A stretch of 62,696 bases of DNA, from NCBI GenBank assembly GCA_001938485.1, contig MQRK01171274.1:62001-124696 (forward strand). Reading direction: 5' to 3'. Positions 4,161 through 46,820 of this stretch are shown here, one piece after another. The notes below the pieces were generated by a model. That model saw nothing but the letters and a program-made list of their open reading frames with translations, had not been told where the DNA came from and made no database searches. The translations under genes and the position numbers were made by a program. The DNA comes from Girardia tigrina. Taxonomy: Eukaryota. Every line of letters starts with the position of its first letter. The stretch's first letter is position 1.

Positions 4161-4199
4161 ATAGAGCTGTTATTTCTTTAGAGGGTTCTTCTAAACCAA

Positions 4200-5055: not shown

Positions 5056-5249
5056 TTGTGCTCTTCAATGTTTTCTAATATAATTTTTATTTCAAAATTT
5101 TCAATTTTCCTTATTGTGTTTATTTTAGATGACGAATATCGCAGTGTTATCAAGTTATTGGTGTTACAGAAGATGTGCAGTGAAATCTACGATCTTTTGC
5201 AGTCAACATACCTATATGACTCCCATTTTTAAGAACTGTTAACAGAATG

Positions 5250-8230: not shown

Positions 8231-8267
<37 letters not shown>

Positions 8268-8317
8268 NNNNNNNNNNNNNNNNNNNNNNNNNNNNNNNNN
8301 NNNNNNNNNNNNNNNNN

Positions 8318-8365
<48 letters not shown>

Positions 8366-11300
8366 TTATTCAAATCATATTTGTTTTTGTTTTATTAATT
8401 TTTACAATGTTTATTAATTTGAAATATAAATTTAGATCTTTAAAATTATTTTAATGGACACATCTTGTAAAAAATCAATTCCTAAATAATTTTTCTTTAA
8501 TTTTAAAAGTTCAATTATAAATAATTTTTTAATGAGAATTTCCGTTGACAATTAAATTTAATAGAACATTATGATTTTTATTTTAGAACTTGATTTTAAA
8601 ATATTCAATAAATTATATTTTTTTAATATATCTTTCCGTTGACAATTAAATTCAATAAACATTATGATTTTTTTATTTAAAAAAAAGTGTTACAAGATAT
8701 ATCAAAATTTCTTTACAATATTCTTTTACTCTGAAACTGTTATTTTAATTGTGATTTTTAAACCTAATTTTTTTATAAAAGTTCTTTTGATTTAATTAAT
8801 AAAAATATTATCATTACAATATACTTTTTATAAAACTTATTTCATTTTAATTAGTAAAAATATTAGCTATAAACTTAAATTTTTTTATATGTAATTTCTT
8901 TCAAAAGTTCTTTCAATTTCATTAGTAAAATAATATTTTTTAATTTATCTCAACTATAATTATGATTTTTAATTTTAAAATGTCAAAAATTTTCAGTTCA
9001 CCAAAAAGAACCCCTAACAGAAATTGTATCACGATCTCAAAAATATATCAGTTCAAAAATATTCAAAATATGTTCATTAATAAATCTATTACACCTTTAA
9101 CAATATGTTCTGATATTTTTTATGAATATAAATTTAACCCTTTCGCAGCTGCTGGGACACATATGTCCCAGTGAATGTTTAAAAAGGCTGTTGGGAGATA
9201 TATGACCCATCATAAAAGACGAATGGGATATATTTGTCCCAACCTTCCCAGCCCGCCCCCTGAATAAATTTCCAAAAAAAACTTTTAAATAATAAATTTC
9301 AGACCGGAATAAACATTATATATTTAACAAAAATTATCTATAACTTAAAACGGAAAGCCGCTGCGAAAGGGTTAATGGGTGCGATGCCACATACATTTGA
9401 GAGACTGTCCGTCATCTCTGTAAACAAAGTCAAGAACATGGTCGAAAAGCGAGTAAGAGTAATTTTGCAGAAAATAGGAACAATGTAAATGTGATGTTAA
9501 TATTGATAATTTCACAATTCTGTGAGAGCATTTTGACAGTTATTGGGAGAGAGTGTCGTGTGAAGCATTGTTAATTAAGTCACGTTGCCCTAAAATCAAT
9601 GTTCAATCGGTAGTATCAACCAACTTATTGAGAATTTTTTTATTAGCGTGATATCATTATACAACCATTATTTGTGCATTTATACATTAGGGATATGACT
9701 TTCTTGTACCCTTATATTCCCATAGTACTATTATCCGTAAGCGGTAGAGACAGCAATAAATTAATGAAGAAACTAAATTCAAAGCATATACAGCATTACA
9801 AAAGTGGTTAAAAGAAACATTTAGAGTTCAGTCAATTATGTACCCTTTAAGACTGAATATTTTAATGTTTCATTCTAAATCATTGAAGTATAATGTAATA
9901 TTTCAAAAATAATTAATATAGTTTTATTCTTACTAACATGTATATAACCTTTATGCAAGTATAAAGCTAGTATTAATTGTACTGAAATTCCAAATTTCAG
10001 TTTCTGATATTCTTTCAATTTCTTATATATCTTATTTAGGAAGTATAAAAATTCAAAATGTTGACAAAGTGTAAATAAATATATCTCATAGGGTATATAT
10101 TTTAAAAATCAATTAATCAATAAAATATATACAAATATATTGTTCATAACAAACTTTCTCCAGGTGAATATATGGTCACAACAGTGCCGTGTGATCATCC
10201 AGTGTCTCTCAATCAATTGCATCTCCGCAGTCTCTCGCGTGCACTCGCAACTCGCCTATCGATCTCTATTGATCCATTCCATCGATACTCAATCTATTCA
10301 CCTTTATATTGGAATTCCTTTGTCGTTATAAAAAGTATTTTCTCATTGATAAATGAAGTAGCAAATCGTTTGAGAGATTTTGTCTTGATTATTTGAATCA
10401 CAAGGTGATCAGGCTGCCCAATTTATCTCCGATAATGGAGACGATGTAATGATGTACATCGTTTCCAAATACGGCAACACAATCCAGGCCGTTATTGCCA
10501 AGAGGGAAATACTTTGTGATAAAAGAGACGTGATTATTAGCGTGTTTTAAAAAGTCCACATTCACTAAAAATGTTCACTCAATTTACAATTGGTTTACGA
10601 GTGTTATTTTAACTATTTATCAGAAACGAATCTTTTCATATTAAATAAAATCAATCTAGCATTTTTATATATAATTATATATTCAACTTATATATTTATA
10701 TATATATATATATATATATAATATGTTAAATAGTGAGTTTTTGTTGGTACACACTATTTACACAAAGTATTAAACCATCTTATTCAATTTTTATAATAAG
10801 AATAATGTTTTATAAAAATGATATTCAATAAAATTTTAACTATCTTTGCTAAAGAGAATTTAGAGAAAAGTATTACCATAAATTTATAATTTTATAAAAT
10901 AATTACTGATTATGAGTTAATATGACCACCATATAATTTTATATAAATAAATCAATAATACTTGAATTTTTTCACATCGTTTTTTCAAAAAATCATTTTT
11001 TGCATATATTTCTCTGGGGGCCGATGTAAGGGCACAGCCAAGTCTGTCCAGACAACTGATCTCTCTGAGTAATCCTAAAACATCAGGATCCATATTCAGA
11101 AGACACTCTCCATACGGTTCATCATTTGTTAAAACAAATATTGATGATTTCATTCCATTTAATTTTGCATTAATCTAGAACAGATTAATAAGTTTAACAA
11201 AACCAATTCAATAACCAATCTTTTCCATGTGTGATAAACAGATATCTCAAAGTGAACCAGCATCTCTGTGGTAGTGTTATACATACTCACGATCTTTCTT

Positions 11301-14300
11301 CCTTCCACAATCGTAAATACTTCAGGACAAGTCAAAACAAACATATTCATATTTTCTTCAAGATGCAAATACAAATTCCGAGCCCATGCAATGCGTCCTA
11401 TTGTAAATAAAAGCATAAGTGTGATAAAAAGTATACTAAAGAAAAATTATATTGAATTACAAGAGAAGCTTCAAAAGACTATTAACTTATTGTAAATAAT
11501 ATTATTAATAAAAATTTTTTTTTATAAAAACAACCACGTTTTTCAAGCATTACCAATGCACTAAAAAGAAGAAAAAATAATTTTTTTCTAGACATGTGAG
11601 AAATTTTATACCTAACCAAAAACGTGGGGCGGATTNNNNNNNNNNNNNNNNNNNNNNNNNNNNNNNNNNNNNNNNNNNNNNNNNNNNNNNNNNNNNNNNN
11701 NNNNNNNNNNNNNNNNNNNNNNNNNNNNNNNNNNNNNNNNNNNNNNNNNNNNNNNNNNNNNNNNNNNNNNNNNNNNNNNNNNNNNNNNNNNNNNNNNNNN
11801 NNNNNNNNNNNNNNNNNNNNNNNNNNNNNNNNNNNNNNNNNNNNNNNNNNNNNNNNNNNNNNNNNNNNNNNNNNNNNNNNNNNNNNNNNNNNNNNNNNNN
11901 NNNNNNNNNNNNNNNNNNNNTTGTCATCGGAAGCAAGCCTGTATAAAACTTCATTCATGAAAATAAACGAAAAGATTGCTATTTAATACAGTGTATAAAT
12001 TTGTAGATAATCGTAAGTGGTTTTTTGCAAAAAAAATAAAAAATTATTTTTTTTTCAAATTTTTTTTATCAAATTGTATTGTCATCGGAAGCAAGCCTGT
12101 ATAAAACTTCATTCATGAAAATAAACGAAAAGATTGCTATTTAATACAGTGTATAAATTTGTAGATAATCGTAAGTGGTTTTTTGCAAAAAAAATAATAA
12201 AATTATTTTTTTTTCAAATTTTTTTTTATAATATTGTATTGTCATCGGAAGCAAGCCTGTGTAAAAAAATTCAGCTGAATTGGATGACTGAAAGTGGTCG
12301 AAAAATCGATCGCAAAATTTACAAACAAACAGACAGACAGACATACAAGAAAGTAAGTTAAGAAAAACGTGGTAAAAAGAACTTATCGTAAACCCCATCT
12401 TCTTCTCGTATAAATGAAGGTGTATAAAGCTTTTATAAATCTGAGATATACAACTCAATTGAAAACTGCAATATACCAAACGAGAATCTAACAAAATCTT
12501 TTTTCAAGGGGTATTAACTTTGAATTTCATTAACAAATCCAGAAAATTGAGGGTTGAAATAAAATGTCTCGTACAAGTATCTTTACTTAAGCAAACAACG
12601 CGGATAATTAATACTCAGAACAATGTCAATTGTCACTTAAAATATAATTTTTTAATACAAGGAAGCAATGCTGGAAGTATAACATGAAACCTATTTTTCT
12701 AGAAACATTTAACTGATTTATAAGATGACAACAAAAATGGATTAATATTTTGTTGAATGGATGCAGGTATCTTTTTTCAAATCGATTAGAACTGAGTATT
12801 TTGCTATGAATTAACATAATGTCCCACGTTCTAGGTATAATAGACAAATTTAGTAGATATATCAGCACATAATCAAGATGAGACGACAACAATACAGACG
12901 GTACAACAGAAGTGGATATTTCGATTAAGAACACCAGAGTGCATTTATGTGGACCATGGAAAAGTATTTGAATCTCGGTTATTTGATGATTTCACGTAAT
13001 CGCAATTGATTAAAATAGCATTTTCGAGTCCATGCCACCATAGTTCAAGCGGAATTATAGAGACAATTCTGAAACGTTCGAGATGAATTAAAAGTGACAC
13101 TAAGAGAAAGAGGAAGTAAATCTTCGATAGAATATTACCGGAAATAGAGTTCAGTATGCATACGTCAATACAAAACACGATTGAATGTAGTCCAGCGGAA
13201 GTAATTTTTGGAAAACGATTTACTCTTGATGAAATTAAAAAATAGAGATTCGAAAACCAAAAGCGGATTTTCAGGTTGGAGACTGGGTACTAGTGAAAAT
13301 AGGCAATCAACAGAGAAGTTCGGATAGTTATGATAGACCTTATGAAATCATATATAAAGAACATGATTGGTGCGTGAAGATACGTAATAAAACGGGTTGA
13401 ATAACACCCAGAAATATTAAATGACTGAAGCTTTTGAAAGAAGGGGGGTGTAAGGATAAATAATTTTATTCTATTTTTATTATCTTTATTACAATAACGG
13501 ATCGAGAATATTCAAATTAATCTCTTGATTGCCTATTTTCACTAGTACCCAGTCTCCAACCTGAAAATCCACTTTTGGTTTTCGAATCTCTATTTTTTAA
13601 TTTCATCAAGAGTAAATCGTTTTCCAAAAATTAAATAATAAACGCGTGTAATTTTTAGATTATAAAATAAATTTGATATTTTTCAGGGAATCATGTTACA
13701 CTTGTTAAATAGTTTTAAGAAACAGTAATGATAATTCTTTTTAATATTTATTTAAAAACATTGTTAAGAATTTTTAAAACCATGCGAACACTATTCTAAA
13801 AAATATTTAATAATAATATACTTCGACGGTTTTACCGTTATCTTCAGATTATGAACTTTATTACTTGTTATATAATCTATTGACTAAAAATTATTGAACT
13901 TTTAACAAATTGTATGAGAATGCAGTTCTAACATTGATTTTTGAATTACGAGATCTTATTAACAATACTCACACGACACTCTTTCCCAATAATTTTTAAA
14001 ACGCTTGCACAGAATTTTGAAATCATTTATACTCAAATCACATTTAAAAGTTTTCCTAAAATAAATAATAAAATTAATTATTCTATGATTGTTTCATGCA
14101 TACCGATATAAATTTTATTTCAAACCAAACTTCACAAATACAGATTGCTCCATTTAAGAATTTCAATATAATTTATCAAATTATACAATACAAATCAATT
14201 TATCTTTTAACTGAATTTCTCAACTGAAATGTCTTTGTAAAAATTTTATTTTTCTTCGAATCGATTCGATCTTTTATTTTTTTCTGTTAAGAAACTAAAT

Positions 14301-17300
14301 TGTATCCCCAACTCTCCACAATAAAACTCTATCATATACCATCATACTACCGAATGCTCATCTCCAGAACCAATATTCCGAATGGCAAATGAATTAGATA
14401 AATTTACTTTGATTTCTTGACGATCATTCTTGATCCCAAATATTTTATAAAGTTTATTCAATTGTTTATTTTTAATATTTTTGTTTTAATAATTCTTAAG
14501 AAGGATGTTTATTGGTTGATTTATCTCTATAAAAGATTTACGAGCTTACTTCAGGCCATAAATAATCTTCAGCATACCCTTTCGGTGCCGGTTCGACTTT
14601 CGACGTGGAGGTAGAGTCACTTCCTGAATTGGTCGGTAGATCCATCCGCATCTCACACAATAAAATGGGAACTCAACACAAAATTCATTACTATCAAGAA
14701 TGTTAACATTAATACAAGTCCTCGAGATCAATGGCGTTCTAGATTTGTGAGGAAACAATTGGATATGTTCCATGGTCATTTGGTATTGCATTCGATTTAT
14801 TTTTTGCCGATTTTGTCATCTTCTTTATATTAGGTGTACAACTAATTAATTTCGTATTTGTTACGAAATAACCTTATATTCGTATTTGTTACCTCATTTC
14901 GAATTTGTTACTAACCTCATATCTATTTATGTAGTCAATAGTCAATTTTATNNAATTTTAGTAAACACACAAATTTTTTTTATTACAGTCAAAATGTCAA
15001 ATTACGTTCCAACAAAACAGCATTTGCGGGGAGGTTTGCTTTTGTTCTTTAATTTAAGGAAAAGTGCAACAGAAGCTTATCCTGAATATGCTCCAGAGGT
15101 TAGAGTATATCAGCAGTGGTTTGTACGATTTAAAAGTGGCGATTTTGACGCAGAAGACAAAGAGTGATCAGGTCCATCAAAAAAGTTTGAAGACAAAGAA
15201 TTGGAGGCATTACTCGATCAAGATCCATGTCAAACTCAAGAAGAACTTGGAAAAACATTGGAAGTCACTNNNNNNNNNNNNNNNNNNNNNNNNNNNNNNN
15301 NNNNNNNNNNNNNNNNNNNNNNNNNNNNNNNNNNNNNNNNNNNNNNNNNNNNNNNNNNNNNNNNNNNNNNNNNNNNNNNNNNNNNNNNNNNNNNNNNNNN
15401 NNNNNNNNNNNNNNNNNNNNNNNNNNNNNNNNNNNNNNNNNNNNNNNNNNNNNNNNNNNNNNNNNNNNNNNNNNNNNNNNNNNNNNNNNNNNNNNNNNNN
15501 NNNNNNNNNNNNNNNNNNNNNNNNNNNNNNNNNNNNNNNNNNNNNNNNNNNNNNNNNNNNNNNNNNNNNNNNNNNNNNNNNNNNNNNNNNNNNNNNNNNN
15601 NNNNNNNNNNNNNNNNNNNNNNNNNNNNNNNNNNNNNNNNNNNNNNAGCAATAGCCGAAAAACGGCCAGAATGGGCGACCAGACACGAGAAATTGATTTT
15701 CCATCATGACAATGCTCGGCCACATGTTGCAGTACCGGTCAAAAATTATTTTGAAAATGCCGGATTGGAAATTCTACCTCACCCGCCTTATAGCCCAGAC
15801 ATAGGTCCTTCTGATTACCACTTGTTTCGGTCGATGCAGAATCACCTTTCTGGAATACGGTTCACCAATGTTGAAGGTATTAAAAAATGGCTTGATGACT
15901 TTCTCGGCGCAAAAGATGAGAAGTTTTTTTGGGATGGAATCCATAAATTGCCTGACAGATGGGAAAAAGTTGCCGCTTCCGATGGACAATATTTTGAATA
16001 AAATATTTTTTCACTTTTATACTTAAATAAATGGTTTTATTAACAAAAAAATACGAAATTAATTAGTTGTACACCCAATATTATTGAAGCAACTTTAGTT
16101 CCCAAATTGGGATTTTTGTATTTGAATTTAATTTTCTTTGAAATGGATTTTGATAATTACTATTTTTGATATTTTCAGTTTTCGGAATTCTGTTGAGATT
16201 TCGATATTTTGTGGCGATGAAAGACATGACAATAATAATAATACTAATGCGCTACGTTCATTATATTATTCTAAGATTAAAGTTGTATTTTTATGTTTTT
16301 AAATGTTTATGAAAAGATTCGGCTTTTATAATACTTACCATGATTTACAAGTTTTTAATTAATACTGATATATTACGGTGGTATAAAGTTTATGGTTACC
16401 TTAGAAACACAAGAGATGACATACAATTAAGCATTAAATTTCCAGGTAAATACCATCCTTGTCTTAATTTATCTTTTGGTTCATCCATCACGCACCTTCT
16501 TGACATTCCTGAGCTGGAGTCCTCGTACAAAGTGAGCAATCGACCGGAGCAAGTAGGTACAAATTGTACAAAGGATGAGGAAAGACGTCAATGTTGTACG
16601 ATCTTTTTCAAAAATATAAATATCTACATTTAAACGACAGTAGAAAATTTTCGAGAAGAACATAATATTTGTGAAATATATTTCTTGTATAAAAAATAAT
16701 CCATAAACTTTTGTCACACTTTATTATTCTTCTAAATTGAAATATAATTTTTAAATAAATTAGATATTCTTATCGCTTTACAAATAATTAATCCAATGTT
16801 TCATTGAAATCACATTTAGTTATAAAATATATAATATAAAAATTAAAATATTAATTTAGTGATACCCGCGAAGTAAGGCATATCGCGATCCAGAGGAGGA
16901 TTGTCTTGATGTTCAATGAATAAATTTCGGATTACTTGAATTTCGCTTTTAAATGCTTTAAACAACTCGACATATCTCGAAAAATGGTCTAGTTCGGGAA
17001 TATCTATCTTCTCAATTTTTTGTTGCATTCTTAAGCCAGCAATAACGCCTTTGGATCTGTGAAAGTAGCTGTTTATGACCCCTATTAAAGCTGTATGTAA
17101 ATCTTCAATTTGATTTTGGAATTCTTCATAATCCTTATCAAAAGATAAATTTCTTTGGTTGAGAAAATCGTATTTCTTTGATGTAATAAGTGTGGTTATT
17201 CTATCGTAACGATTTATTACCGTATCCTTTCCTGAAATACATTACAAAGGAAAAATAAATGGCAATATTGGATAAATATAAATTCAATATTTTCGTTTCT

Positions 17301-20300
17301 TTTAACACATTGTTTTCTGGAGACGAGTTAACCCGTCATACCCTTCTTTATACAGCATTACACATAATTTGCTAAGTACTTAAATCAAGACATCTTTTTA
17401 AAGTAAAACACTGAAAGTTTCATTGAAAATATTTAATAGATCGTTAGATATGAATATTTTACGGAAAGTCTAAATTTTTCGCGAAAATTAAATAACACCC
17501 ACGCTACACCACGAATGTGCGGGAAAATGTCCGACTACATTGTGTTAATTTATTTTTTAGCTATCAACTGGTGCTCATAATTTAATATGGATTGAAGAAT
17601 TTTAAACTTACGTACTTCCAGAGCCGTAGTGATGGCGGTGCGAGCGGTGCGGTCGCACCGGGTGCATGGGCGCCAAAATCGCACTTTATAATAATAATTA
17701 TAGTAGTCTTTTTTGTTTAATGGCAAAGCATCCATGAATTTATCCGAATAAATAGATGTTTTCTTATAGCTAGGCGATGCAAGGCTTAAGCATCAATGCT
17801 GCGTCATAGAGCATGTGAAGACGAACGTCCAAAGTCATTTTAATTCTTTTAAGGTATAATTTGTAGTAGTGAATCTTTTTCGCGCTGGGGGCGCCAGATT
17901 TGAACTTCGCACAGGGCGCAATTGTTCCTTACTACGGCTCTGCGTACTTCTGTTAGTTTTTTAACCCTTATTTCTTTGAAAATTATCGAATTAAAGAATA
18001 AACTTTTATCGATTTATTATAAAAGAATTCGGAAATTATAATTTCAAAATCTACATCAATTAATTGTCATTTAAATTAGTGATCTTCAACGTTTCTTTAA
18101 TATGTCACCCAATGTACAATATCCTTATAAGGTCTCTTAAGAAAGATTTATTTTTCCAACAAAATAGTGTGCTTAAAAATTATAATTTCAGATATAATAA
18201 GATAAAATTAAAAAGTACATATCACAATAATATTTATGCTAAAATGAGTAACCAGATAGTGAACCAAATTATTTATTAAAATTTGACGCCACTATTTCAA
18301 AGGACTTCTTACACCTACTTGAAAAATGAGTTAAGGACAAAAATATAAATAAATAAATGAATTTCGCATCTTTCACACGTTTTCTGTCCAAAGATTAATT
18401 TTTGTTTCATTATAGCTAATTATAATGACAATATGTCATAATTTAATGCTTTCAAGTCATAAAACACTATGTTAACGTCACCTATATGTATAGTTTTATA
18501 TGTATGATTCCAATTGACTTGAAGGCTTTAGGACAGGTTTCGGAAATTAGATATAAAAAAAATATTTTTCAAATAAGGGATGGATGGGCTAACTGGACAA
18601 AATATCAACCAGTGACCCCTCAATTATATACAGTGTGACCAGAAATCGCGGACCATAAATGTTAGAAAGTATAAAGATCCATATTAGATAGTAATCATTA
18701 TATAGTTCATTAATGACTATTTTCACCTTGACAATTTGAGAATCTATTATGATTAAGATAAATAAGTATTTCTTTATTTTTTATTTATTAGGTTGGAACG
18801 AAAGTTTTGTTAGTTATTTCAAAATCTGTAAACAATTTCTTTAATTTAATTTTGTTGTATATGGATTTTATATTTTGTTATATTCTGATGAACATTTTGA
18901 TGTATTATTCGCATTATATGGCCATTTCTATAAAAAGTTAAAAGAAAAAAAAGCTTGAAGAAATCTGCAACTTGATTTTTACAAATTCAAGCTTGGTCGT
19001 AAAGCAGTGAAAGCGTCTAAAAACATTTGTACAAGTAACGGCTAATATTTAATGACTGTAAGAACATGCTTTCGATAGTATGGGAAATGCCGCTCCGGGA
19101 ACACGCGTCGTAAAGACAAAAGGCACTCCAGATGCCTAACAACCGTTGATAAACAAGAGCTACTACGTTCTATTGAAGTGAACACGACTCAAACAACGCG
19201 CGAGCTGGCCGCTAAACTCCAAACTTTACATACAACCTTCAGTACATGAACAAGAAAAATAATCGTTGTCAAGAGTTCCTGTAAGAACTCAACAAAATGC
19301 AAAAAAATAATTTATTAAAGGCTGTACGTGCGATGAGATGTAGTTTTTATCTACAATAACCAATGGCTGAGTCCAAGTCAACTGTAAAAACGAACGCCTT
19401 GAAGTGATCCACATAAAAAAGGATGATGTTGTGCGTTCGATGGATGGCATTTGAGCCTGTTCTCATGGAACTCCTTTCGCGCGGTCTAACCATCACCTCT
19501 GAAGTTTACTGCATCGAATAAGACCGTGTTGAGGACGCTTGGCGAGTTCTTTGATTTCAACATGACAATGTCAAACCTCGTGTTACACGCCGAACGCTAT
19601 ATTTAATTTTTATTTTTTTCTAAAATTTACTTGAATTTTTCAGTTTGTTCTAAAATTGACTGGATTTTATCATCTTTTTTCAAATTTATTACTTAAAAAA
19701 CCATTTAATTTTCTGAGACTTAATTTTCCGAGACTTAATTGTCGTGCTCCGATATTATTTTTTTTTATTTTTTTTATATTTTTTTTTATATTTTTTTATA
19801 AAAAAACTACTTCTAGGATACTATATATATTAAAAATAGTGTATCAAGTTAATTAAAATTTCTAAACCTTCTAAAACAACATCCTTTAAAATGGAATAAT
19901 TTTTCATTGATTTCAAAATCGCTATCAATTTCACAAGTCTTGTTTCAAATAAATTAAAATTTCCAAATATTTGAACTTCCGAAAAATCAAAGAAGCGATT
20001 CTCATTTTCGAATTTCATATCTTTCCTCACTTTCTGATAACACTTTTGATAAACATGGTTCAGATTTATACATATTTCCATTCTTTTAATAAATTTATCT
20101 GGCTCGCCGTCCCATAGTGTATGTTTTCCTTTGTCGGTTATAAATCCTTTGCAAGTATAAATCATTTGATTAGTTATCTAAAGTATAATAAATTTCTAGA
20201 GCTCTAAATACTTATATTACCTTTACAAACAATTGAGTCATATTTGTAAACGTACGATAATACGTGGAGTAAACGTAAATCATGCTTAAGGATTGCAACA

Positions 20301-23300
20301 ATTTGGGAACAATTTCGATCATTTTCTCCTGGTTAAAAAATATTTTATATAAAATATTTTTATTTCGAAAGGTCATAATAATAATTATTTATGAAATATT
20401 TAATCAAAATATTATTTTAAACTAAAGCACTACTCGCATTTCCCGGGAAAAAATAGTTTATAATAAAAAGCTGTTTAAAACATATTAAATTTGAATTCAG
20501 GTCAACTATTTGAAGAGGTGACCCATCTCAGAGATACACCCCAATGCTGAGTTGGATACATCACTAAGGTGAAGTAATTATGGGTTTTAATTAGATACCG
20601 GTCAAAATAAAAATATCAAATATCTATTTTTCTGTTTTTCAGAATTGGATTCAGATTAAAAAGACACTTAAACTAAGGTGTCTTACCGATAGAATCAGCA
20701 TTGAAAGTTGGGTATTCCGGTACTAGTCCAGGTTAGCCGTGATGTACTGTTCTTGGGCCATGTAGAAAAAGGAACGTTGTCGAGGAATCGATTCGATCTT
20801 CACTAATTTATCCATTCAAATCAAATATTAAAATTTCAAGGTCAGAGCTCAGAATTGGACTAATCTACCACTTTCTGAAATTCCAACTTGAGCCTTAAGT
20901 CTTTCGACGGAACTGAAAACGGGTGAATATCGGGATTTTCCGTAAATCGGAATGTCATAATGAGAAAATTTTGGAATTTATACTGTTGGAGTCACCTTCT
21001 CAAGACGAGTCAAATAACATCTGGATTGGTGATCGGTAGACAAAATAAACCAATGTAACCATCTATCACACCACTGAAATGATTGACTGGTGATACAGTT
21101 TTTTCAGTGTGACACTATTGTGTAATTTATATTACTTTTGTTTATATAATATCTGTTTACTTTTATTCAAATTGTTGTCAAATAAAGCCTTCTCTTTGGC
21201 CTTATCTCAGCTCTACAATTTATTTGACAACAATTTTATGTTTTGAGATCATGGATAAATTATTAAAACCCGATCGTTTCGACGCGGATTCATCGTCATC
21301 GACAGCAACCAAAGAATTGGATGCGTATGGGCCATTGGTTGCGTACTTTCGAAAATTTCTTGAAATCGGTGGGAGATACTAAGCTCGATCGTCTAGTGGT
21401 GTTGACAAATAATATCTCATCATCAGTATATACTATCATCGCTGACTGTATTTCTTACGACGACGCTATGGAAGCGTTGAACGACGTTTTTGATAAACCG
21501 AAAAATGAAATATTTGCGCGGCATCTTCTCCCGACTTACATCAACAGCCAAATGAATCTACAGATCAGTTTTTACAATCACTTCGCCGGCTCTCGAAGGA
21601 TTGTAATTTCAAAATAGAATCAGTCGAAAAATATTGCGAGGAATCAATACGTGATGTTGTTATCGTCAATGCAACATCTCAAATGTCTTTCAAAACAATT
21701 TTATCTGAAGAAAGTAAAGTTTAAGTTGCAGCCACCTCACGTAATTTGTGCTATTTTGTGGTAATGCGCGCCACCATCGTACTGTATTCCCAGTAAGCGA
21801 TGTGATTTGACACAAATGCAGTAAAAAGGGATATCTTTCAAAGATCTATCACTTTGAAAAATCTACAATTATTTCTGCTACCACAAATCAATCAATTCTG
21901 TCAGTCAGTTGACAATCAGCTGTTGGCAATCCTGTCTCTCATGCTATAATTGATATGGTTATAAATGGCAACACTTTTAAAGCGTGTGTCGATACAGGTG
22001 ACTCTGATAATTTTATCAAAAAGTCGATTAAGCATCAACTCTCTTTAAAACAGTTTCCTTCGTCTGGATTTATCACTCTAGCCAGCACTGCTCACCATAC
22101 AAGAATTACAGACTATTGTCTAGTTAACTGTTCTATTAAAAACGAAGAGTACAATAACATCAAATTCTTCGTATTAGACAATTTATGTTGTGATCTTTTG
22201 TTTGGTCATGACTTTATGTGCCAGTATAAAAATATATCGATTACTTTTAAAGGCGATAAGCCCACTCTATCTGTCTGCAACCTCATTGCTATGTCAATTC
22301 AACCTCCAGTTCTATTCTTCAACCTATCTAGTGATTGTAAGCCTGGGGCTGTACCATCGCGACGTAATTCTAGTGATGATCGACAATTTATAAGATCAGA
22401 GGCTCAACAACTGCTGAGAAAAGGTATCATCGAGCAAAGTGACTCTCCGTGGAGAGCTTAGGTGCTAATTGTAAATAATGTGCACCACAAGAAACGCTTA
22501 GTAATTGACTAATCACAAACCATCAACAAATTTACGCATCTAAGCGCTTACCCTCTTCCCAGAATCGATGATTTGCTACAAAAAATACGAAGTACAAGTT
22601 TGCTCTTCTTGTAAAATCTTTGCTAAACTCAAAACTAGATTTTTTAAAACAGATCAAAATCACCTTATTAAAGCAACTATGCCATTCGAACGTTTGAGCA
22701 TGGATTTTGCGGGCCCTAAGCCTTCAGTAATATCTCACAAGTACCTACTCGTTTTGGTAGACGAGTACTCAAGGTTTCCTTTTGCCTTTTCATGCAGCGA
22801 TGTATCTGCTTCTTCTGTAACTAAGTGTTGGTAGCAACTATTCAATATATTTGGAATGCCGGATTATATACATTCAGATCGGATAGCTCAGTTCATGTCT
22901 GTAGAGGTATCCTCATTCTTAACATCTTGCGGAGTTGCCCAAAGTCGCACAACTCCTTACAATCCACGCAGTAATGGTAAGTGCGAGCGTTACAACGGTA
23001 CTATATGGAAAGCTATTTAACTGACTCTGAAAGAGCGAAATCTGCTTGAAAAGTTATGTGAGTCCGTGTTACCAGAATTGCTTCATGCGGTTATATCTCT
23101 ACTTTGTACCACTACGAATGCTACTCCTCATGAGCGCTTTTGTCATTTAGTCGTCAATCGCCTATCAGCAGCTCTTTGCCGTAATATTTAACTTTGACAG
23201 GGCCTGTACTACTGAAGCGGTATGTTAGAAGCTGCAAATCGGAGCCTCTAGTCGATGAGGTTGAGCTAGTTTTGGCAACTCCTAAATACGATCATATTCA

Positions 23301-26300
23301 CCATCAAAATAGTGTCGAATCTATCGTCTCGCTTCATGACTTAGACCCTATGCCCAAAAATAATGAATTTAATTTGACCCCAATTGCAGAGGAATTGGAA
23401 GAAGTATCTACTTTCTCTCCTCAGGAGAGTGAGGATCTTCAAGAAGAAGCATTGCAAAAATCTGTGAGCGACATCAGTGTCTTCGATTCTTCACTTTCTG
23501 ACGAAAAAAGCGGTCATAAAAATATTTTACCACAGTCTAAAACTATCTGTTAACCCCTCAGAAGGTCTTTGCAGTTACACGTACATCCGGAACGATATAG
23601 TTAGATATAGCTAGATATCTAAATTGTAGCATCTTGTTGTTTCTCTCTTACACAGATAACAGCTTATTTAATTGGATGAACAATTATTCTCTAGTTAGAG
23701 TGAATGTTGTGTAATTTATATTATTTTTGTTTAAATAATATCTTTGTTTACTTTTATTCAAATTGTTGTCAAATAAAGCCTTCTGTTTGGCCTTATCTCT
23801 TCTCTACAGACACTAGTATCTATATTTCTTTTCTATCGATATTTGATTTTCTCTTCGATGTTTCAGTAACTAGCATCGAATTAAAGGCTATATCCATGAG
23901 GCTTTTCAAAGAGTTGGACTAAATAGCAAATTGAAAAAAAAATCATTTTAAAAATTTTATGAATTATTATTAAAATATTTTGGTGAAATCTTTTCAAGGA
24001 TATGTGCAACAATTTTCCAAGTTTGGTTGTGATTTGTGCGTTAGGTTCTGAGTCTATTTGAAACATATATGTTTGGTTCAAAATCATTAATTGAAGTCGT
24101 AACACGTAAAAATATATTTCTATAGCAACAATGATTTTTACAACAATTTTTAAAAGAACTATTTTCTTATTTTGTACGAATCAGAAATAAATAAGTATAA
24201 TAAATATAAATATGATTTTATAATCATCATAAATTTATGTAAATATTTTTTTTAAAAAACTTTATATCAACTTATTAATTTTAGCATTGTTAAATTCTTA
24301 TTTTTTTATTCAAATTTTATCGTAAATTATTAAATTCAAATCATTTATATTGTTATTAAAACCTTATTGCAACTTATTAATTTTAAATTCTTATTTCTTA
24401 TTAAATTGTTATTTTATGTTTATTAAAATTTTAAAATCTTTATCTTATAACGTTATATTTTTTTAACTTATTAACTATTTAGTAGATAATTACTTATTTT
24501 AATAAATTATCTGTTAATCGTTATTAACACTTTTAATTAATAATCTCTTTAAATAATTTATATTTTATGCTATTTTAAAAACTGGAAAATCTATAAATTC
24601 GCCAGCCTAACAAGATTTCCATACATACATTTATATATTTATAAAGAATTTGCTCATTAAGCGTACCCGTACATGTGCCAAATACATTTTGTAAAAAAAC
24701 ATTTCATCTTTTTTCTATACATTAATCGTGGTCTTTCTGTGAAATTTTAGTGTATTATTGATTAAAGTTTATTTAGTTAATTTTACTCTTTCATTAAGAT
24801 GATTAATTTTTAATATTTAGAATTTTATTTCCTATTTTTTACTAATATTATTTGATTTCTGTTTTTAAAAAGTATTAGAAAAAATCAAGAATATGACATT
24901 TTAGTGTTAAAAATAAATTGTAGTGTCCTAGTCCAAGTTTTGTCAGACGAAGACACTTTTTGCAATAATAGATTCATTGAAGACTGCTAAGACAAAGGTT
25001 GGTGGTACATGGGTGGTGAGAATACGAATGAGTGATGATGGATCTTCAAAGCATCATAAACCTTTAGAAGAATTGGTGTCTTGTAAACTAGTTAATTTGT
25101 TAAAAAAGAAAAAATATTGTGTTTGTCATATAAGTTGCATCCCACATTTATTACAATATTTCCATTAAATTATTCATAAATAAATAAACTTTATAAAAAA
25201 TAAAGATTACTATATCTCTATGATACAACGGAACGCAATACTTTTCAATAACACTTAAGAATTTTGTGTTTTCTTTGCTTTCAATAAACGCTCTCGTGAC
25301 TTTCTGATCCAATTGTACCCATTTCTTAAAGGATAAATAAATATTTGTTCATTAGTAGCTATAAGAATTACGTCTAGAGCTTTTGAATGAGCTATTTTTA
25401 ATACAAGTAAAACATTTGTAACTACTTTTTGTTTCAATTGGTTTACCAAACAATTAAATCTAGTCATCTGTTTTTTCCAAAACTTTAACTCTTCATGAGG
25501 ACCAATAATACCACTTTCAACTCGCAATAATTCGATTTCGGTTATTTCCTAAAGAAAATATTATAGCTGATGATAAACAAAACTTTCAACCTTTTGGATT
25601 TGTTTCATCCATTTACTGGTTACTTCTTCTGCTTTGGCTAAACTTTCTGGATCATTAGCGGCACTAGTGAGACCTTCAACCCCTGTAATCAAAACTGCAT
25701 TTCCATCCATTTCGAGAATAACTTTTTCCTCGACACAAATACTGGCAGCTAGTTTACAAAAAAATATTTTAAAACAACGCTAAATAAAAACAGGAAAAAA
25801 CTTTGAAATTATGGTTGATCAATAGTTAAAGTTAAATTTTTATGTTTCGGAACATATATAATAGATAATAATTTATTATAATAGGATAAAACATAAAATT
25901 AAGTATAAGTTTAAACAAATAAATCTGGTTATTCTGTTCGAAAAAGTTTAAACGAGCTAAACAGTCTTGAGACAAGAGGAAAACTATGACCATCTAACTT
26001 ACATTACATTAGTTAAAAACACTTATATGGTGACCACAGGATTATTCCTCGGCCTCTTTATTTGCTTTTCCTATAAATGTTTACTATAGATTGTAGGGAT
26101 ATATTTTATAAAGACATATATGTGATTATAAATACTCGAAAACTTACATATATACCCCCCATTTTGGACTATTTATGTTGGAAGAATTTTTTAATGAGTA
26201 ATGTGCGATTATTTAAGTTAATTTAAAATATTATTATTTAAGGAGGAGACTATTTTTTCAGAATTTTTTTTGGAAAAAATATGATATTTTATATTGAATG

Positions 26301-29300
26301 TTTTTGATATTTTAGAATGTTTTACAAGCTACCATACTAATTCGCCTTAGAAGAATTATATGATTTTCTTATTATTTGGGCCGAGATGTTACCAGATGTC
26401 GAATTTACGATTAATGCTACTCTCCAGAAAACAATCGGCAGGAGCCCAGCAGAAGTTATATTTGGAAGGAAGATAGACAGACAAAAATGGTACAGTGAAA
26501 ACACATCAAAGAGAGAAAACACAACTGCAAGCTCACAAGACATGAATACACATATTGATGCACAAACAAAAAGAACATTTCAAGTTGGGGACAAAGTATG
26601 GGTCAAGAAGGAAAACAGAAAAAAAGATGAGGACCGATATGAAGGGCCGTACACAATAATTGAAAAGATTCACGATAGGAGTTATAGGGTAGAAGACATA
26701 CACAGGAAACAGATGGTGAGAAACGTAGAGAAGTTCAAAAATTTTAAAGAAAAGGGGGAATGTTAGGGATTAAATTGGAAGGTAAAATTTTTCATGTAGT
26801 AAATTAATTTAAATGAATAATAATAATGTAAAATTCTTTAAGAAAATTTTATCATAATAATTAAGTTAAATAATTAAACTATTTTTATGTATATAAATAT
26901 CTTATCTTATAAAAGCCCAAGTCACTCACTGCCTGCCTGCCTGCCTGCCTCACTAACGCTCATATTATCTACTTACAATTGTAAGTAGATATTTATATTA
27001 ATAATAATTCATANNNNNNNNNNNNNNNNNNNNNNNNNNNNNNNNNNNNNNNNNNNNNNNNNNNNNNNNNNNNNNNNNNNNNNNNNNNNNNNNNNNNNNN
27101 NNNNNNNNNNNNNNNNNNNNNNNNNNNNNNNNNNNNNNNNNNNNNNNNNNNNNNNNNNNNNNNNNNTGTGTCTTCTTTGTTTTAATGCATCTGTTCCACA
27201 TCCAAAATTACTCAAATTAAAATTAAAAAATGAAATTTCTTTTCTCAATTTTACCCGTCATACATGACGGGTTATTTACTAGTCTGTACTATATATGGTT
27301 GATAATTTAAATAAATTTGTTCCTCCAAAAAATAACTGAATATTGAAATAAAGAAATTGTTTTAATATTCAGAGTTTGGGAAAAAATTTCAAAAGAGTAG
27401 AAAATTGTTTATAGAAATAAATTTTTACCAAAACGTTATTTACTTTTTTTATTATGGAGTATTCGGCCGTTCCGACAGAAGATAACAATTTAAAAGTTAT
27501 TTTGTAGCAAAAATATATTTTTGTTATAATTGTCAATATTTTTATCTAATGATATTAAAGTTACTTTCGAGAGAATTGTTGAAATCTTGAATCAGATTAA
27601 CATAATTTTTCTTTCCACTTGCATCTAACTCTCCCAATTCATTTTGTTGAGCTTCGATAAATGGAAGAAAGATATTGGATAACAATTCTACATATGACCC
27701 TAGAATACTTCTGTCACCGGAGAGCTTGAAAAAATGTATATCCTAAATTGAATTATTAACATAATTAAAAGTCATAAAAATAAATCACAGTAGTCATATT
27801 TCTTTCTGTGATTGCTTGAGTTACATCTGCTTTGACAAAGACTAATCCACCCTTATCGAAAGGCAGAAGTCCAGAATGAAAACATATCATGTCTTCTTCA
27901 GTTTTTTTGACATATTTATTTCCTGTTAATATACATATATAAACATTAGAAAACATTAGATTTCATAATATACTTGTTATTTCGTTTCGAAAATTTTGAT
28001 TAAATATAAAATTCATCCATTTCAAAGTTTATTTATAGACAATACATTTCAATGGATGAAACGTCATATTCAGGTCACTGAATAATAATTTAATTTATCT
28101 GTATATAAATAGAAAAGAATTAATATATGAATTTCCCAAAATCACGCTTATCAAAAATTCTGAATAAACTTATTGAGACTACCATTTGAACATGTATTTT
28201 AGGGTAACACGAACTACTTAACAATGCTTTACAAGACACTCTCTCAATAACTATCGAAATTCTTACACAGAATCTTGAAATTAGCAGTATTAATATCACA
28301 TTTATATTTTTATTATGTTCTGCAATATTAATCTTACTCTCTTTTTTCTATTATGTTCTCGAATTCGTTTACAGAGATTACGGATTTCCAATCAAATGTA
28401 TGTGGCATCGCACCCATTACATTTATATTCAAAAAAATATCAGAACATATTTAAGGTGTAAAAGATTTATTACTGAATATATTTTGAATTTTATAAGAAT
28501 GTGACAATTTTTAAATTTAATGCATTGTTAGTTGCTTTTATCATTATATGTTTTAAGGTTTTAAATTCTTTAGAATAAGGTACAATTAAGCAATATTTCG
28601 GTATATTTCGTAGAACCATGAAGAGAAACAAAACTCGGATTTTTAGAATTATCTTTAAAAGTACCTTTTCCACTTTTTCCTATATTATTTTTTCAAGAAA
28701 AGATTTAAACTAACCATTCTGATTTAATATGAAACTTAGTTTATAAATACTTTCTACATATTTAAATAAAAGTTGAAGACAGAGACTAAGATCAATAAAT
28801 TAAGTCTGTAATCATGTTTGTTTACAAAAAATGTCCGGTGAAGTAAATAAATCTGTATAAGTTTGGTTTCTATAAATTCCAGTCTCGTAACTGAAGAAGT
28901 TTTTCAACCAAAAGATGCAGAACAGGTAAGATTTCATTTGTTTCATCTTGAACTGTAAAAGCAACATTTAGGTGTAACGAAAGTATTTTTGCTTAATTTT
29001 ACGTAATTCTGAATGATGTAAAACCTTTAGAAATACATTGTTAAAAGCAAATATTAATGAATAAATTTAAAAACTATATCACTATTTCATAAAATTTAAA
29101 ATATGTTCAGTAATAAATCTATTATACTTTTAACAATATTTTCTGATATTTATATGAATATAAATGTAAATGGTGCGATGACACATACATTTGAAAGACT
29201 GTCAGTCATCTCTGTAAACGAATTCGAGAACAAAGTCAAAAAATAATAAAAATAATTTTGCAGAACATAAGAAAAAATGTAGATGTGATATTAATAGTGT

Positions 29301-32300
29301 TAATTTCAAAATTCTGTGTAGGAAATTCGATATTTATTTATTTAGAGCATTGTTAATTAGTTCGTGTTATTCTGAAATCCATGTTCAAATGACAGTCTCA
29401 ACAAGCTTATTCAGAATTTTTGATAAGTGGGATTTTGTGCAATTGATTACATATTAATTCGTTTGCATTTATATACAGATAAATTAAATTATTAATCAGT
29501 GATCTGAAGATAACGGTTGATCTGTCGAAATATATTGTCTTTAAATATATTTTGAAATTTATGAGTTTTGTTATAAATAAAAATATTTATCTGCATTGAA
29601 GCTTCTGAAATATAAAACAATAAAATTTATGAAGCAAATAGAAACAATAAATTGAAACCCTTTAATACTAGTCCATATTCTGTTATAAGAAAGCGGTATT
29701 GTTTTGTGTCCAGATTAGTTTGTAAAATAATTCATGTCTTTCTTTTTATGGTTGATCTGTGCAGATTATGTTCCCTAACTAAATAAGGTATAACGTTAAT
29801 AAGTCGTTGGAAGTGTTTCAGTGAGTGTAAAAACCTTTTCTACTAAAGTTGGATATTAATGAGTATTGCTTAATTATAAAAAAACAAACAAAAACAATTG
29901 CATCCTTTACTTTGAGAAGAGAATAATGACTAATTCCGATCCTCAATTTCACCATTTGAGAAACCTCACGCGAACCGCGTTTGAAAAGATATATATCTTC
30001 CCCGTGATCATTGATCACTTCTATTTTCACGTCTTTTTAGACCATGTTCTACAATTGTCCTCTTCAATTATTGGAAATCTATTTTTTTCAAATAACGAAA
30101 GTCGTTTCGTTGCAAAGATGTGCTTATATTTTTCGTGTATATTTTCAATGAATCATTAATTTGAGACTAAAACTGAATAAAATCAATAAGAGAATCTGAC
30201 AAAACTGATGTCATGTATTTTGAATTAATTTAACTTTACTAAAAAGTTCGAGCAAGGTAAAAATAGAAGCCAAAAGTCAAAATATATTCCGGCAAAGGAA
30301 GCAGTAAATTATCGGTACAAAAAGGTGAGGAAGACAACTATATAAAACATCTCTTGGATACATACTTATTGGAGTTTTCTAAAAAGCCCTTGTAAAACGA
30401 AAATATTATTTTTATACTTATATACATTCAGTGATCAAAACTAAAATTGATGCAAACTTAAAAGCTCATAATCTGTAATATTTGTGTATTGAGCAGGATA
30501 AATTGGTATTCGCTTTCGTTTTAAAGATATAACATCTTAATAAGCATAAAATGGGACAATATTGCAATATATTTCATAATACTATCATGTACAAATCATC
30601 TACAGTTTAGTTATTCGTTTTCGATGATTTTTTTCCTTTAAATTAAGCTACTCCAGGTAGCTAAAATTATTTTTCTGAAAGGAAGGTGAGCTAGTATTTT
30701 GTTTTGATATTGAGGGCCTAATGAATGCCTTACGAATCCCTCATAACCAAAAGAAATTGAAAGAATATATGAACTCTTCGAAATTCAGTCTTAAACATGT
30801 TGCGCAATGAAAACTGCCTTACATATTCTATTAGTTCACAATATCCTCATGAGACATATGATAAATTAATGTAACTTTGGAATTTGAATTATTATAACAA
30901 GTGCAACTAACATTTCAGTGACGACTTGCAGGTAATTGTCCTTACAATGAGACTGCAGCAGAGATAATCTTGTGAATGAAATAACCGAACAAGTAAAATA
31001 TTTACAGCTGGTGAAGAATTTTCAGCTGCAGATGACTCTCTTAACAGACTGCTACTAATCATGCAGGACTATAAATTGCTGAGTGGTTGCAATTGTTGAG
31101 ACAGGTGCATGTCACACAAATATCATCATCCGAAGTTGATCAAGAAATATTTATTAACATCACAAAAATAAATCCGAATACAAATATAACATTCAACAAA
31201 CAAGATTGTAATGTGAAAAATAAATGATTACATAAATAAAATGAATTGCTTCACTTCAAAACTTTTTTTCTGCTAACTAATTGAGTTTCCATAGTTTTTT
31301 TATTTAGTGCGACTAAACAACGAAACATGTTTTTGTCTTTTTTCCTGTTTTGTGCTAGTCAAACTAACGTCTTTACACTGTTTGGTTGCTTTTTGGGAAA
31401 AAAGATATGTTAATTAAGTTTATGTATGTGAGTAGGGATAGTTACGTAATAATTATTGTGTGATTGCTGATGACATTGATTGTGTAAAGTCAGTTGTGAT
31501 GATACAATAAAATGGGTTACTTGTCTGATGTTAAATATATGCTGAATGTATGTTGATAGTATATATGTGTTTGAGAGTGTAAACCAATGAAAAGGCTTTG
31601 AAAATGTGAGTTATTATAACATCACTATTTTCATCATTAAATAGTCGAGATTTTGGATATTGTGTTATAATTAATAAATATTATAATCGGAATTAATCAT
31701 TTTATTTTAAATGGATAACAATGTAGATAAAATAATTTTATGATAATCCAATTTACATTTGTAGATGACTTTTTAAATTTAGATTTCTTTATTCATATAA
31801 CTATTAAAAACTTTAAACTAATTATTGAGATTTATTTAAAAATAAATTTGTTAATGATTCAATAATTAAGGGTCACTACGACATCTACCATGTTGAGAAA
31901 GAATTTCGTAAAATTTAATTTCTTGATACTTTAATTAACTAAATCTACTTTTCAGTTCCCCGATTTTTTGTAAAAAAAACTCAATTTGACACGAAAAGCA
32001 TGTGCCAGTTTTAAAAAAATACAATTGATGAACATGATTATCTCTAAATATTGGATGTACTACATTTTTACAACTGATGGTCGCATTGGGATTTTCAGTC
32101 ACGGTCACTAAAATCTATTAATACGTTGAGTTCATTAAACTGAGCCGATTTTTTAATTTAATTAAAATACCCAAATAGAATTTTCAAACGCTACACAAAG
32201 GATTGTCGTTAACTACAAGTAAAAGAATATTTTTTATTAAGAAAGCGTAAAAGAGCTAACTCAAACCTGTATTTGCTAAATTATGTAAATAAATTACTAA

Positions 32301-32542: not shown

Positions 32543-35500
32543 CTTCGGATGAATAATTAAAATGGATCTAAATATTGTTTGGATTGTCGAGAATGAAAAA
32601 ATATAGGACTGATAGATTCGGATATTTTAAGGATGTATTTTCAGCTGAATAATCAAAATTGATTAATGCATCGTTTGGATATGGGGATAAGTAATCAAAT
32701 TGTTGGATAATGGAGAAGATAATTGCTTCGATAAAGTATTTAAGATGATATTTGGGATTGTGGAGAATGAACATATAATTCTTGATAGTCAAAATTGTAG
32801 ATTTTCAATCACAATAAAAACAAACAGCGAGTCGGTAAAACTTGTTAATAAAAATGATAATTTATAAAAATATTGTGATCGATTAATGGATCAAAATTTC
32901 AAAATTCAAATATAAATATTGCATTTAGGCAATATGGAAATTTGAATTATAAATAGTAAACACATAAATAAAAATAAAATAACACATAATACAAGTTAAA
33001 TAAAATATATAAATATTTATATCATAGTGAATATTGTAATAAATGCATATCATAAACTTTATAAATAAAAATAAATATAAATAGGAAAAATTATTTCTTT
33101 TTAAATAAATGAATTGATGTCAGATTATTTACAGAAAGCATAAAATTAGAATCATTATAAACACTACAGAGAGAATAATTTAAATAAGTCATTAATAAGG
33201 CCTTGTTAGAAACAATGTTATAAATTCAGTAAGTTCATTTTTATATTTCTCCGAGGCCGCGGGTTGTACATCCGTGCTCTAAATGGTTCAACAATTCATT
33301 GTAATTAAGAACACATAAAACAAGGCGTCTCGACTTATAAAGACAATTTTACACTAATTCTCATTTTTATAATTTTCCTTTAGCTACAAAAAATTAATTG
33401 AGGATTGAAAATATGCTGAATTTTTTATACTGTTAGATGAGTTTGTTGTTACTACCATTATTATTTTTTTAAAACTATTTTAATTTTTATCATAAAAAGT
33501 ATTTTTTTTCTTTCTAATATTTTCATAACTTACAATTAAATAATACATATTTCATCAAACACATAATTTTTAAAAAATACAGTTTACTATATGTAGAATG
33601 TGAAACAATTCGAAATAATCAAAAACAATTGAAAATCAACAAATAATATTTATTAAGCTCTCAATTGCAAATAAACGCGTGATTTCCAAAATCAGCTGAA
33701 TATTAAAACAAAAATAACATATTCGATTTTCTACAATCCTAAACCACATTATAAATGACCGAATATGTCTTTAATAAAATTTCAAGTTGGAATAGTTACT
33801 TATAAAGCAAAATTTTGAATGTATTTTTATGTTTTATGTTTCAGTCATGTTTAGAATACTTTCAGTTTTTGACAGTATATTTACGAAATATGGAAATCAA
33901 TTTACTGAAAACAGCCTCAAGGGGATTTTAAAAGAATGGAATCGGGTGAAAATGTACAATTTTCCATTGTTTTCTTTAAATATGATGGTTATAAATAATA
34001 TATAAATGTATATTTATAATTGTGCGCCCCAATGATTGGATGCATTCAAAGTCTGATAGTTATTTTTTCTTACCTCTATAATATAAGGTTATAAACATTT
34101 AGAAAAGTTGTAAGTAGATGATAAAACATTCACTATTATGATATATATTTAAAATAAGAATTTCTTTTCAATTTTAAATCCATTTAATGTAATTTTTCTT
34201 CGATTAAATTATAAAATAATACAGTTACCAGCATTTAATAATCTAAATGTGGCGTTAATAAAAAATGTGATTAATGATTTTGCTTTAAACAAAAAACAAA
34301 GATGCTTTGTTTTTTTAAAAAAAGTAAGTAAATTTATATATTTATTTATAAAACTTAATTAATCACCAAAAATATCAGATTTGGTGAGGCAGTCTCGATA
34401 ACGCCTCGATGGGGTTGAGGAAAGGCGAATATGGAGGAAGGTTTATGATAGTGTGATTTGAGATCGTGTTTATGTGGATCCGGGCATTGTCATGGATTAA
34501 ATAATCTGGTGTCCGGGGTAATTTGGCAGACAATTCAGTTATGAATGTTTGATATTTGATATGATCCAAGCTTCCACACTGAACTTGGAATAAAAGGGTC
34601 CTTCTTTGGAGATTGCCATAACGAGGGATATATTTTTGCCCCTATTAGTAGGTACCACTACATTGACTGGACATCCTTTCTTCGATCATCCTGATGTCCT
34701 TCCGGGTTCACAAGTTAAACCTGATTTCATCAATATATATACATTGATTCATCCGCCAACCTTCTTTTAGAAACCGATTGGCGTATTGATATCGGATCTC
34801 TTTAACCCGGTCGGAATTCCTTTCCTGAACTGAGCCTCGAATTTTCTTAATCGTTACCAGCTGCTAAGTCAGTAATCGGAATATTGTTGACTCCGAAATA
34901 TTGATATGCTTATTATGATGCACATATCTTTTCATTTCGGTCAACGTAGATTGGGGTTTCTCCTCAATGAATTGAATAATGAAATCCCCGATTTCATTGT
35001 TAATTATTGATTTTTTGTATCCTCCCCGCTTTCCGGTTGATATTATCCATAATTTGCGGTACTTGTAAATTATTGTTTTCGCTATTATATCTGAAATATT
35101 CAGTTGTCTGGCTAAAGTCAGATAATCCTCTGACTTATTGAAGGCTCTAATAAGCCTTTGCATGTTAATTTCTGAAATTCTGTAAGAAATAAATAAATGA
35201 TGATTTAAATTTAATGGAATTTACAATTTTCGAGTTTTCTTCTCCCGACATGCCTCTGTTCTTTCACTATCTTCAGATAAACTGATAAAAAAATTAATAA
35301 AAAATAATTATTATTAATTATTAACTTCATTACAGTGTCTTCAGCACTGTTAATTTGGGAATAATGAAAATTATCCATTTTTTTATTAAATGACGGATTT
35401 TTTATTAAATGCATGAAAATAGTGTGTAAAAAGTGTGTATTGACTTGTGTATGTGTGTTGTGTGTGTTTAGGGGGAGACGTTATTTTATATATTTAACAT

Positions 35501-46787: not shown

Positions 46788-46820
<33 letters not shown>

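Follow-up and report, generated by a model that had tools for sequence, protein, structure and literature searches.

Three hammerhead ribozyme motifs of Penelope-like elements (PLEs) lie inside a dynein gene in a 62,696-nucleotide stretch of the Girardia tigrina genome (assembly GCA_001938485.1, contig MQRK01171274.1, positions 62,001 to 124,696; G000:C171274:62001-124696), hereafter called the window; two of them are in sense with the gene and damaged in the catalytic core, and the third, in antisense, keeps its core. An earlier note on this sequence had suggested that the pattern may reflect selection against self-cleavage of the host transcript, and the locus therefore raises the question of whether intronic PLE hammerheads are knocked out according to their orientation. 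Analysis of the window, and of the 1.43 Gb assembly from which it comes, makes a different explanation highly probable: the motifs come from two Penelope-like insertions that occupy introns of a DNAH5-like gene and survive as decayed 3' ends, each with a minimal type I hammerhead, the lesions are neutral and arose after insertion, and the copies likely cannot cleave.

The three motifs, named here by their first position, represent two insertions of two Penelope-like subfamilies and not, as had been assumed, three independent copies of a single family. Motif 13810 belongs to a 5'-truncated remnant of subfamily B, whereas 28038 and 29501 close the two arms of one inverted insertion of subfamily A; these arms (1 kb on the minus strand, 0.6 kb on the plus strand) meet 5' end to 5' end and share 79% identity over 613 columns. 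Decay is about 9-11% in both arms, with private changes, mostly G/C to A/T, in 62 of 578 columns (10.7%) of the sense arm and 52 of 578 (9.0%) of the antisense arm, and the long arm is about 77% identical to other subfamily-A copies. Subfamily A, which has the stem I GAC/GUC and the loop UAGAU, yielded 3,376 first-look candidates in the genome, and its 34-base pattern matched the genome exactly 2,789 times, the reversed control 0 times; subfamily B (stem I GUGAU/AUCAC, loop AAA) yielded 2,287 candidates. The window remnants align to family frames carrying GIY-YIG (PF01541; E 5.9e-05, above the cut-off in one of six frames tested, with a second frame at E 6.9e-04), and RVT_1 was matched by one family fragment at E 6.4e-04, below the cut-off, the downstream part of this fragment being present in the long arm. 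No unbroken full frame from reverse transcriptase (RT) to GIY-YIG and no full-length element were recovered. The hammerhead is found 70-93 nt past the stop codon in all five natural copies examined, and the ends of natural copies fall at two points, some 35 nt from each other. Two further PLE remnants occur in the window: a younger subfamily-A remnant at 7995-9684 (+), 85-91% identical to other copies, which is split into three pieces by insertions and ends before the hammerhead, and, inside a dynein intron at 3881-5064 (-), a divergent GIY-YIG remnant of another Penelope-like family, for which positions 3600-3900 showed no hammerhead.

The intronic position of the motifs in a minus-strand DNAH5-like gene is confirmed. 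A domain scan of 23 window frames showed DHC_N1 to be matched by five minus-strand frames in descending order, and DHC_N2, AAA_6, AAA_9 and Dynein_C were matched further down the contig on the same strand. Since same-strand exons flank the motifs in DNAH5 order (Table 1), all three are intronic. A protein search for a full-length dynein returned no match, within length limits, nor did a PDB search with the 27768-27962 frame, and that frame is not used as exon evidence. Assembled RNA contigs from related organisms cover the element arms deeply, with no dynein splice joints among those listed; such contigs cannot show RNA ends and are counted neither for nor against any reading. Sequence, domain and exon matches thus agree with the earlier note on where the motifs lie, on which strands, 3' of GIY-YIG remnants and in dynein introns, and family frames, exact genome matches and the descriptor given below agree with its assignment to minimal type I hammerheads with a palindromic stem III in a Penelope-like family.

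Table 1. Hammerhead remnants, Penelope-like insertions and flanking dynein exons in the window.
Feature	Position	Strand	Details
Minimal hammerhead remnant, subfamily B	13810..13852	-	A15.1>G and G10.1>A changes; AUAAU/AUUAU as stem I; in sense with dynein
Minimal hammerhead remnant, subfamily A	28038..28076	-	G8>U, broken stem II, palindrome changed to AUGUAU; in sense with dynein
Minimal hammerhead remnant, subfamily A	29501..29539	+	All ten core bases kept; changes G10.1>A, C2.1>U and one C>U in stem II; in antisense with dynein
5'-truncated Penelope-like remnant, subfamily B	13771..14069	-	End of GIY-YIG frame, 3' region with short deletion, hammerhead, tail
Long arm of inverted insertion	27989..28981	-	End of RT region, GIY-YIG, hammerhead; broken frame
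Short arm of inverted insertion	28989..29590	+	Starts 7 bases from the 5' end of the long arm
Dynein exon, DNAH5 residues 20-83	35918..36157	-	E 6.3e-05; upstream of inverted pair
Dynein exon, DNAH5 residues 155-210	27545..27742	-	Weak match, E 0.037, best hit; downstream of inverted pair
Dynein exon, DHC_N1, DNAH5 residues 501-625	16846..17241	-	Upstream of 13810
Dynein exon, DHC_N1 382-444	11162..11446	-	Domain scan; downstream of 13810

On their own strands the copies read AUAAU CUGAAGA U AACGGU-AAA-ACCGUC GAAG UAUAU U AUUAU (13810), GAC CUGAAUA U GACGU-UUCAU-CCAUU GAAA UGUAU U GUC (28038) and GAU CUGAAGA U AACGG-UUGAU-CUGUC GAAA UAUAU U GUC (29501). The core lesions previously noticed in both sense copies are present, namely GAAG in 13810 and CUGAAUA in 28038, and stem II of 28038 alone does not fold (0 kcal/mol). 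Antisense copy 29501, which had been called intact, is indeed the only window copy to keep all ten core bases, but it has lost the G10.1-C11.1 closing pair, which is highly conserved in minimal hammerheads (PMC4209133): an A faces C11.1, an A.C mismatch common to 13810, and in 28038 the pair is G.U. We used a minimal-hammerhead descriptor requiring the core, at least four stem II pairs from 10.1, a palindrome, an NUH site and at least three stem I pairs; none of the three window copies passed it, 29501 included, while it found 27 other matches in 1.69 Mb and 0 in reversed sequence. An Rfam scan of the window gave no hammerhead model match, its one match in total being U6atac at E 3.3. Five sequences, both intact and damaged, were folded as dimers, and none took up the hammerhead dimer form at minimum energy; with a helix this weak, the outcome is uninformative. 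Judged by these lesions, 13810, 28038 and 29501 are likely all inactive and unable to cleave.

A fourth hammerhead, from another family, lies at 36662-36699 (-), on the strand of the dynein gene and some 500 bases upstream of its first mapped exon; it has an intact core, stem II GAGA/UCUC, the palindrome ACGCGU and C17 (a GUC site), its stem I is down to two pairs, and no PLE coding remnant was detected beside it. There are also eight loose CUGA.GA...GAAA matches in the window, among which those at 57537(-), 35276(-), 42976(+), 59838(+), 4479(-) and 196(-), missed both by the descriptor and by homology to 12 reference copies, are taken as chance.

The earlier note had also cited covariation of stem I between the copies, and this holds for one base pair between subfamilies. 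Our alignment contained 53 of 59 candidate segments and the three window copies (left out were three segments with shifted register or heavy decay, two duplicate-like ones and the window self-hit), and covariation was counted on 39 distinct rows, 22 of subfamily A and 17 of subfamily B. The structure holds in 83.9% of cells, compared with 22-64% when partners are slid; G10.1-C11.1 is G-C in 33 of the 39 rows, and the AUAUAU palindrome of stem III, followed by U, is paired in 95.7% of cells. Both sides have changed in 17 cells, as many as in one of 500 shuffles, and 13 of these are at the 2.1/1.1 pair (C-G in 15/22 A rows, U-A in 13/17 B rows) and form one inherited event; on this alignment, 2.1/1.1 is one real compensatory event between the subfamilies. 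The stems which had been quoted, GAU/GUC and AUAAU/AUUAU, are instead most likely products of decay. At 2.1/1.1 the first 100 of 2,650 genome matches have 94 C-G, 3 U.G, 2 C.A and 1 U-A (with a B loop), and since C-G dominates among them the GAU/GUC of 29501 is a one-sided change. The stem of 13810 is the B stem with two G-C to A-U double changes, and all five pair-keeping double changes within subfamilies are of the G-C to A-U kind. A search with 13810 allowing three mismatches found one other insertion with the same stem, at two 96%-identical, allelic-looking places. We rejected a lost compensated sub-lineage, as this insertion is no closer to 13810 (73% identical, against 70-77% for ordinary B copies) and in its sister arm G10.1 and the G residues of stem I are still present; convergent decay is simpler.

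Nor is the AUU cleavage triplet unusual, as had been supposed. Drosophila rhopaloa, D. elegans and D. ficusphila have the AUAUAU palindrome with U17, and C. remanei and Latimeria have A-U-U sites (PMC4209133 Fig. S3); in the 27 descriptor matches position 17 is U in 13, C in 9 and A in 5. AUU satisfies the NUH rule, the fastest triplets being GUC and GUA (PMC3138052), and no direct cleavage rate for AUU was found in the literature searched. The palindromes in the same 27 matches are ACAUGU (15), AUUAAU (6), AUAUAU (5) and AUAU (1), ACGCGU being a further one in another family of this genome, and self-complementarity is kept across families, as has been described before.

In subfamilies A, B and G (e.g., L020, L126, L231) an AUG at A9-G10.1, 27 bases before the predicted cut, opens a frame running to the end of the element; the frame has a similar start, MTVxPSK, in all three, and the family differences are whole codons. 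This AUG is likely the start of the element's protein, by analogy with Anolis PAc (Poseidon), the frame of which opens where stem II begins, at a distance of 26 bases before the cut (PMC11167929). In such a frame the 2.1/1.1 covariation would equal a Val/Ile change, and the G10.1>A change in 13810 and 29501 also destroys the AUG. No copy was found with the hammerhead followed by a long frame.

The effect of orientation was surveyed in stretches of dynein, myosin and four-domain channel genes that family searches had located, with gene spans running from exon to exon on one strand (1,285,688 bases in total, on 64 contigs; two end matches alone define seven of the myosin or channel spans and a few of those of dynein, and allelic duplicates are counted separately). 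Copies were found by homology to 12 natural reference copies and had to align across the motif, so that both orientation groups are biased towards intact cores; it should also be noted that many tests were made on few copies. Inside the gene spans 13 descriptor-intact hammerheads are in sense and 8 in antisense (95% interval of the ratio 0.62-4.5), and a descriptor-intact subfamily-A copy is present in sense in another dynein intron (G000:C219863:50102). Homology identified 67 intronic copies on 23 contigs, 40 in sense and 27 in antisense (p 0.14). Excluding the window copies, here and in the lesion counts below, the ten-base core is intact in 19/38 sense and 18/26 antisense copies (p 0.20), the core together with the 10.1-11.1 pair in 19/38 and 16/26 (p 0.45), and the descriptor is passed by 13/38 and 8/26 (p 1.0). 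For subfamilies A and B alone the figures are 6/16 against 6/12 for the core and 3/16 against 2/12 for the descriptor. In one inverted pair in a dynein intron (L100; G000:C205854:12281, 15206-15440) the sense copy is intact and the cleavage position of the antisense copy is occupied by G, opposite to what the window shows. A strong purge of intact sense copies is excluded, and its absence among the 67 intronic copies fits weak or no activity of lone copies. As for the window itself, the ten-base core survives at the arm decay rates with a probability of 0.25-0.33, and two damaged sense copies with one core-intact antisense copy have a chance of about 0.13-0.15 under neutral decay.

Several counts weigh against purely neutral decay. 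Raw core lesions are commoner in sense, with 34 events in 38 copies against 11 in 26 antisense copies (one-sided permutation p 0.028, or 0.034 with a crude age term); when the five self-reference copies, all in sense, are dropped, the p values are 0.008 and 0.031, and the ten-base core is intact in 14/33 sense against 18/26 antisense copies (two-sided p 0.065, one-sided 0.036). The intronic copies surveyed form 16 opposite-strand pairs, and there are more core events in the sense arm in 6, in the antisense arm in 1 and equal numbers in 9 (one-sided p 0.06); among them are the pair in the window, a pair whose arms belong to unlike subfamilies and a pair in which a multi-base antisense deletion is counted once, and by bases the ratio is 5:2. 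We then calculated what to expect of each copy, using base-specific rates and the decay of that copy at non-core sites conserved in its family. Core substitutions were fewer than expected in both orientations, 29 against 35.3 in sense and 10 against 18.7 in antisense, and although the ratio of observed to expected is still higher in sense (0.82) than in antisense (0.53), the permutation p rises to 0.22, and to 0.35-0.39 in three subsets. The tabulation of core integrity by intron orientation which the earlier note had called for therefore yields a raw lesion excess in sense which fades on adjustment, and no shortage of intact sense copies; a weak excess of sense core lesions may exist.

Such an excess, if real, could be mutational, which we consider unlikely. 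Asymmetry between the strands, linked to transcription, makes A>G more frequent on the coding strand, and A is abundant in the core. Core A>G changes number 7 in sense and 0 in antisense, and those at control sites 39/1424 and 16/1046 (p 0.053). However, T>C is not higher in antisense as the asymmetry predicts (33/1579 in sense, 18/1170 in antisense), and sense copies exceed antisense ones in A>T and T>A as well, a sign instead that they are older or less well aligned.

Selection would mean that sense intronic hammerheads cut the host pre-mRNA, whether in trans, as tandem pairs or with the help of protein, that core knock-outs are weakly favoured and that 13810 and 28038 were inactivated in this way. 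We find this very doubtful. The raw lesion excess (p 0.03) and the 6:1 trend in pairs speak for it, as does the under-representation of tandem retrozymes in Xenopus introns, reported without an orientation test (bioRxiv 10.64898/2026.07.22.740005). Yet intact sense copies are not depleted, subfamilies A and B show no difference between orientations, and at control sites, too, decay is greater in sense copies (8.0% against 5.9%). Moreover, 9 of 38 sense copies carry at least two core substitutions, though a second hit gains nothing, and two tandem sense copies in a dynein intron are still intact (L137; G000:C200681:49373, 49655, +). These two hammerheads, 282 bases apart, are of different families with the same ACAUGU palindrome and offer a natural case in which a mixed dimer might form in cis. 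No earlier orientation test of intronic Penelope hammerheads was found in the literature searched, the coverage of which is incomplete; the parts of PMC4209133 covered contain none. That the motifs are chance matches in AT-rich DNA, for which the lack of an Rfam hammerhead match and the eight loose core matches could be cited, is scarcely credible and is refuted by thousands of exact family matches against 0 in the control, the 0 descriptor matches in reversed sequence and the fixed position behind the GIY-YIG frame.

Neutral decay after insertion, the explanation which we prefer, can be set beside what has been published on the class. PLE minimal hammerheads depend on a second copy for stem III, and even with one their cleavage is slow (PMC4209133; PMC6765202); a single minimal hammerhead of S. 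mansoni showed no cleavage and dimers low activity (PMC4209133). The PLE hammerhead of Anolis did not cleave without protein, that of the element being required, no RNA-seq reads began or ended at its site, and it was dispensable for insertion in vitro (PMC11167929). In an active Girardia element two hammerheads would, by comparison, pair via the AUAUAU palindrome and rebuild stem III, and the dimer would cut after AUU, slowly and perhaps only with the help of protein, processing the transcripts of the element. A lone intronic copy would be without a partner in cis, and the sense copy 28038 in the pre-mRNA would pair with the complement of its own inverted arm, to which it is 82% complementary over 137 nt across the motif; there would therefore be little cleavage for selection to act on. 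The motif would have served the RNA of the active element, overlapping its likely frame start, and would have decayed since insertion.

The Girardia families most resemble the PLE minimal hammerheads, and especially those of Penelope in D. rhopaloa, D. elegans and D. ficusphila (PMC4209133), with which they share the type I form, CUGANGA with one unpaired base, G10.1-C11.1, a stem II of 5-6 bp and a stem I of 3-5 bp, GAAA followed by the AUAUAU palindrome, U17, the location 3' of the GIY-YIG frame, mostly single truncated copies and close opposite-strand pairs; they differ in other stem sequences, and the window copies are damaged. The features which define the class (CUGANGA/GAAA core, unpaired base after A9, G10.1-C11.1, palindromic stem III, NUH site and stem covariation) are all found in the families. 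The C-terminal GIY-YIG and the 5' truncation with a tail and an inverted pseudo-long terminal repeat (pLTR) arrangement are those of endonuclease-containing (EN+) PLEs. As in inverted 5'-truncated PLE insertions with a pLTR and a 30-40 bp tail (PMC8557442), a truncated inverted copy adjoins the 5' end and inverted repeats flank the unit 27989-29590; unlike in those, no target-site duplication is visible at the decayed ends of the window insertion. Non-LTR retrozymes are tandem non-coding units with canonical type I hammerheads, whereas the copies here are single or inverted and attached to coding remnants. Protein-assisted cleavage has been assayed for Anolis PAc (PMC11167929).

The locus adds two more subfamilies to a well-described class of PLE hammerheads and, as found, matters little. 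The inverted insertions do provide a paired sense and antisense design for testing the cleavage of PLE minimal hammerheads in vivo. If sense intronic cores were selectively knocked out, inverted arms would give genome-wide, internally controlled proof of the in vivo activity of weak ribozymes; that sense intronic Penelope hammerheads cut pre-mRNA often enough for such a knock-out of the catalytic core is, on present counts, a long shot.

Elsewhere in the window, a gene for an F-BAR (FCH) protein, with exons at 43608-48782 (+), is divergent from the dynein gene, and the domain scan found helix-turn-helix (HTH) matches among other transposon remnants. Five such remnants, at 14850-16001 (+), 21267-23553 (+), 26341-26766 (+), 34375-35220 (-) and 61245-61920 (-), we take from their translations to be two mariner-like elements, two sets of gag, protease and integrase pieces of retrotransposons with long terminal repeats (LTRs), and one Tc1/IS630-like element.

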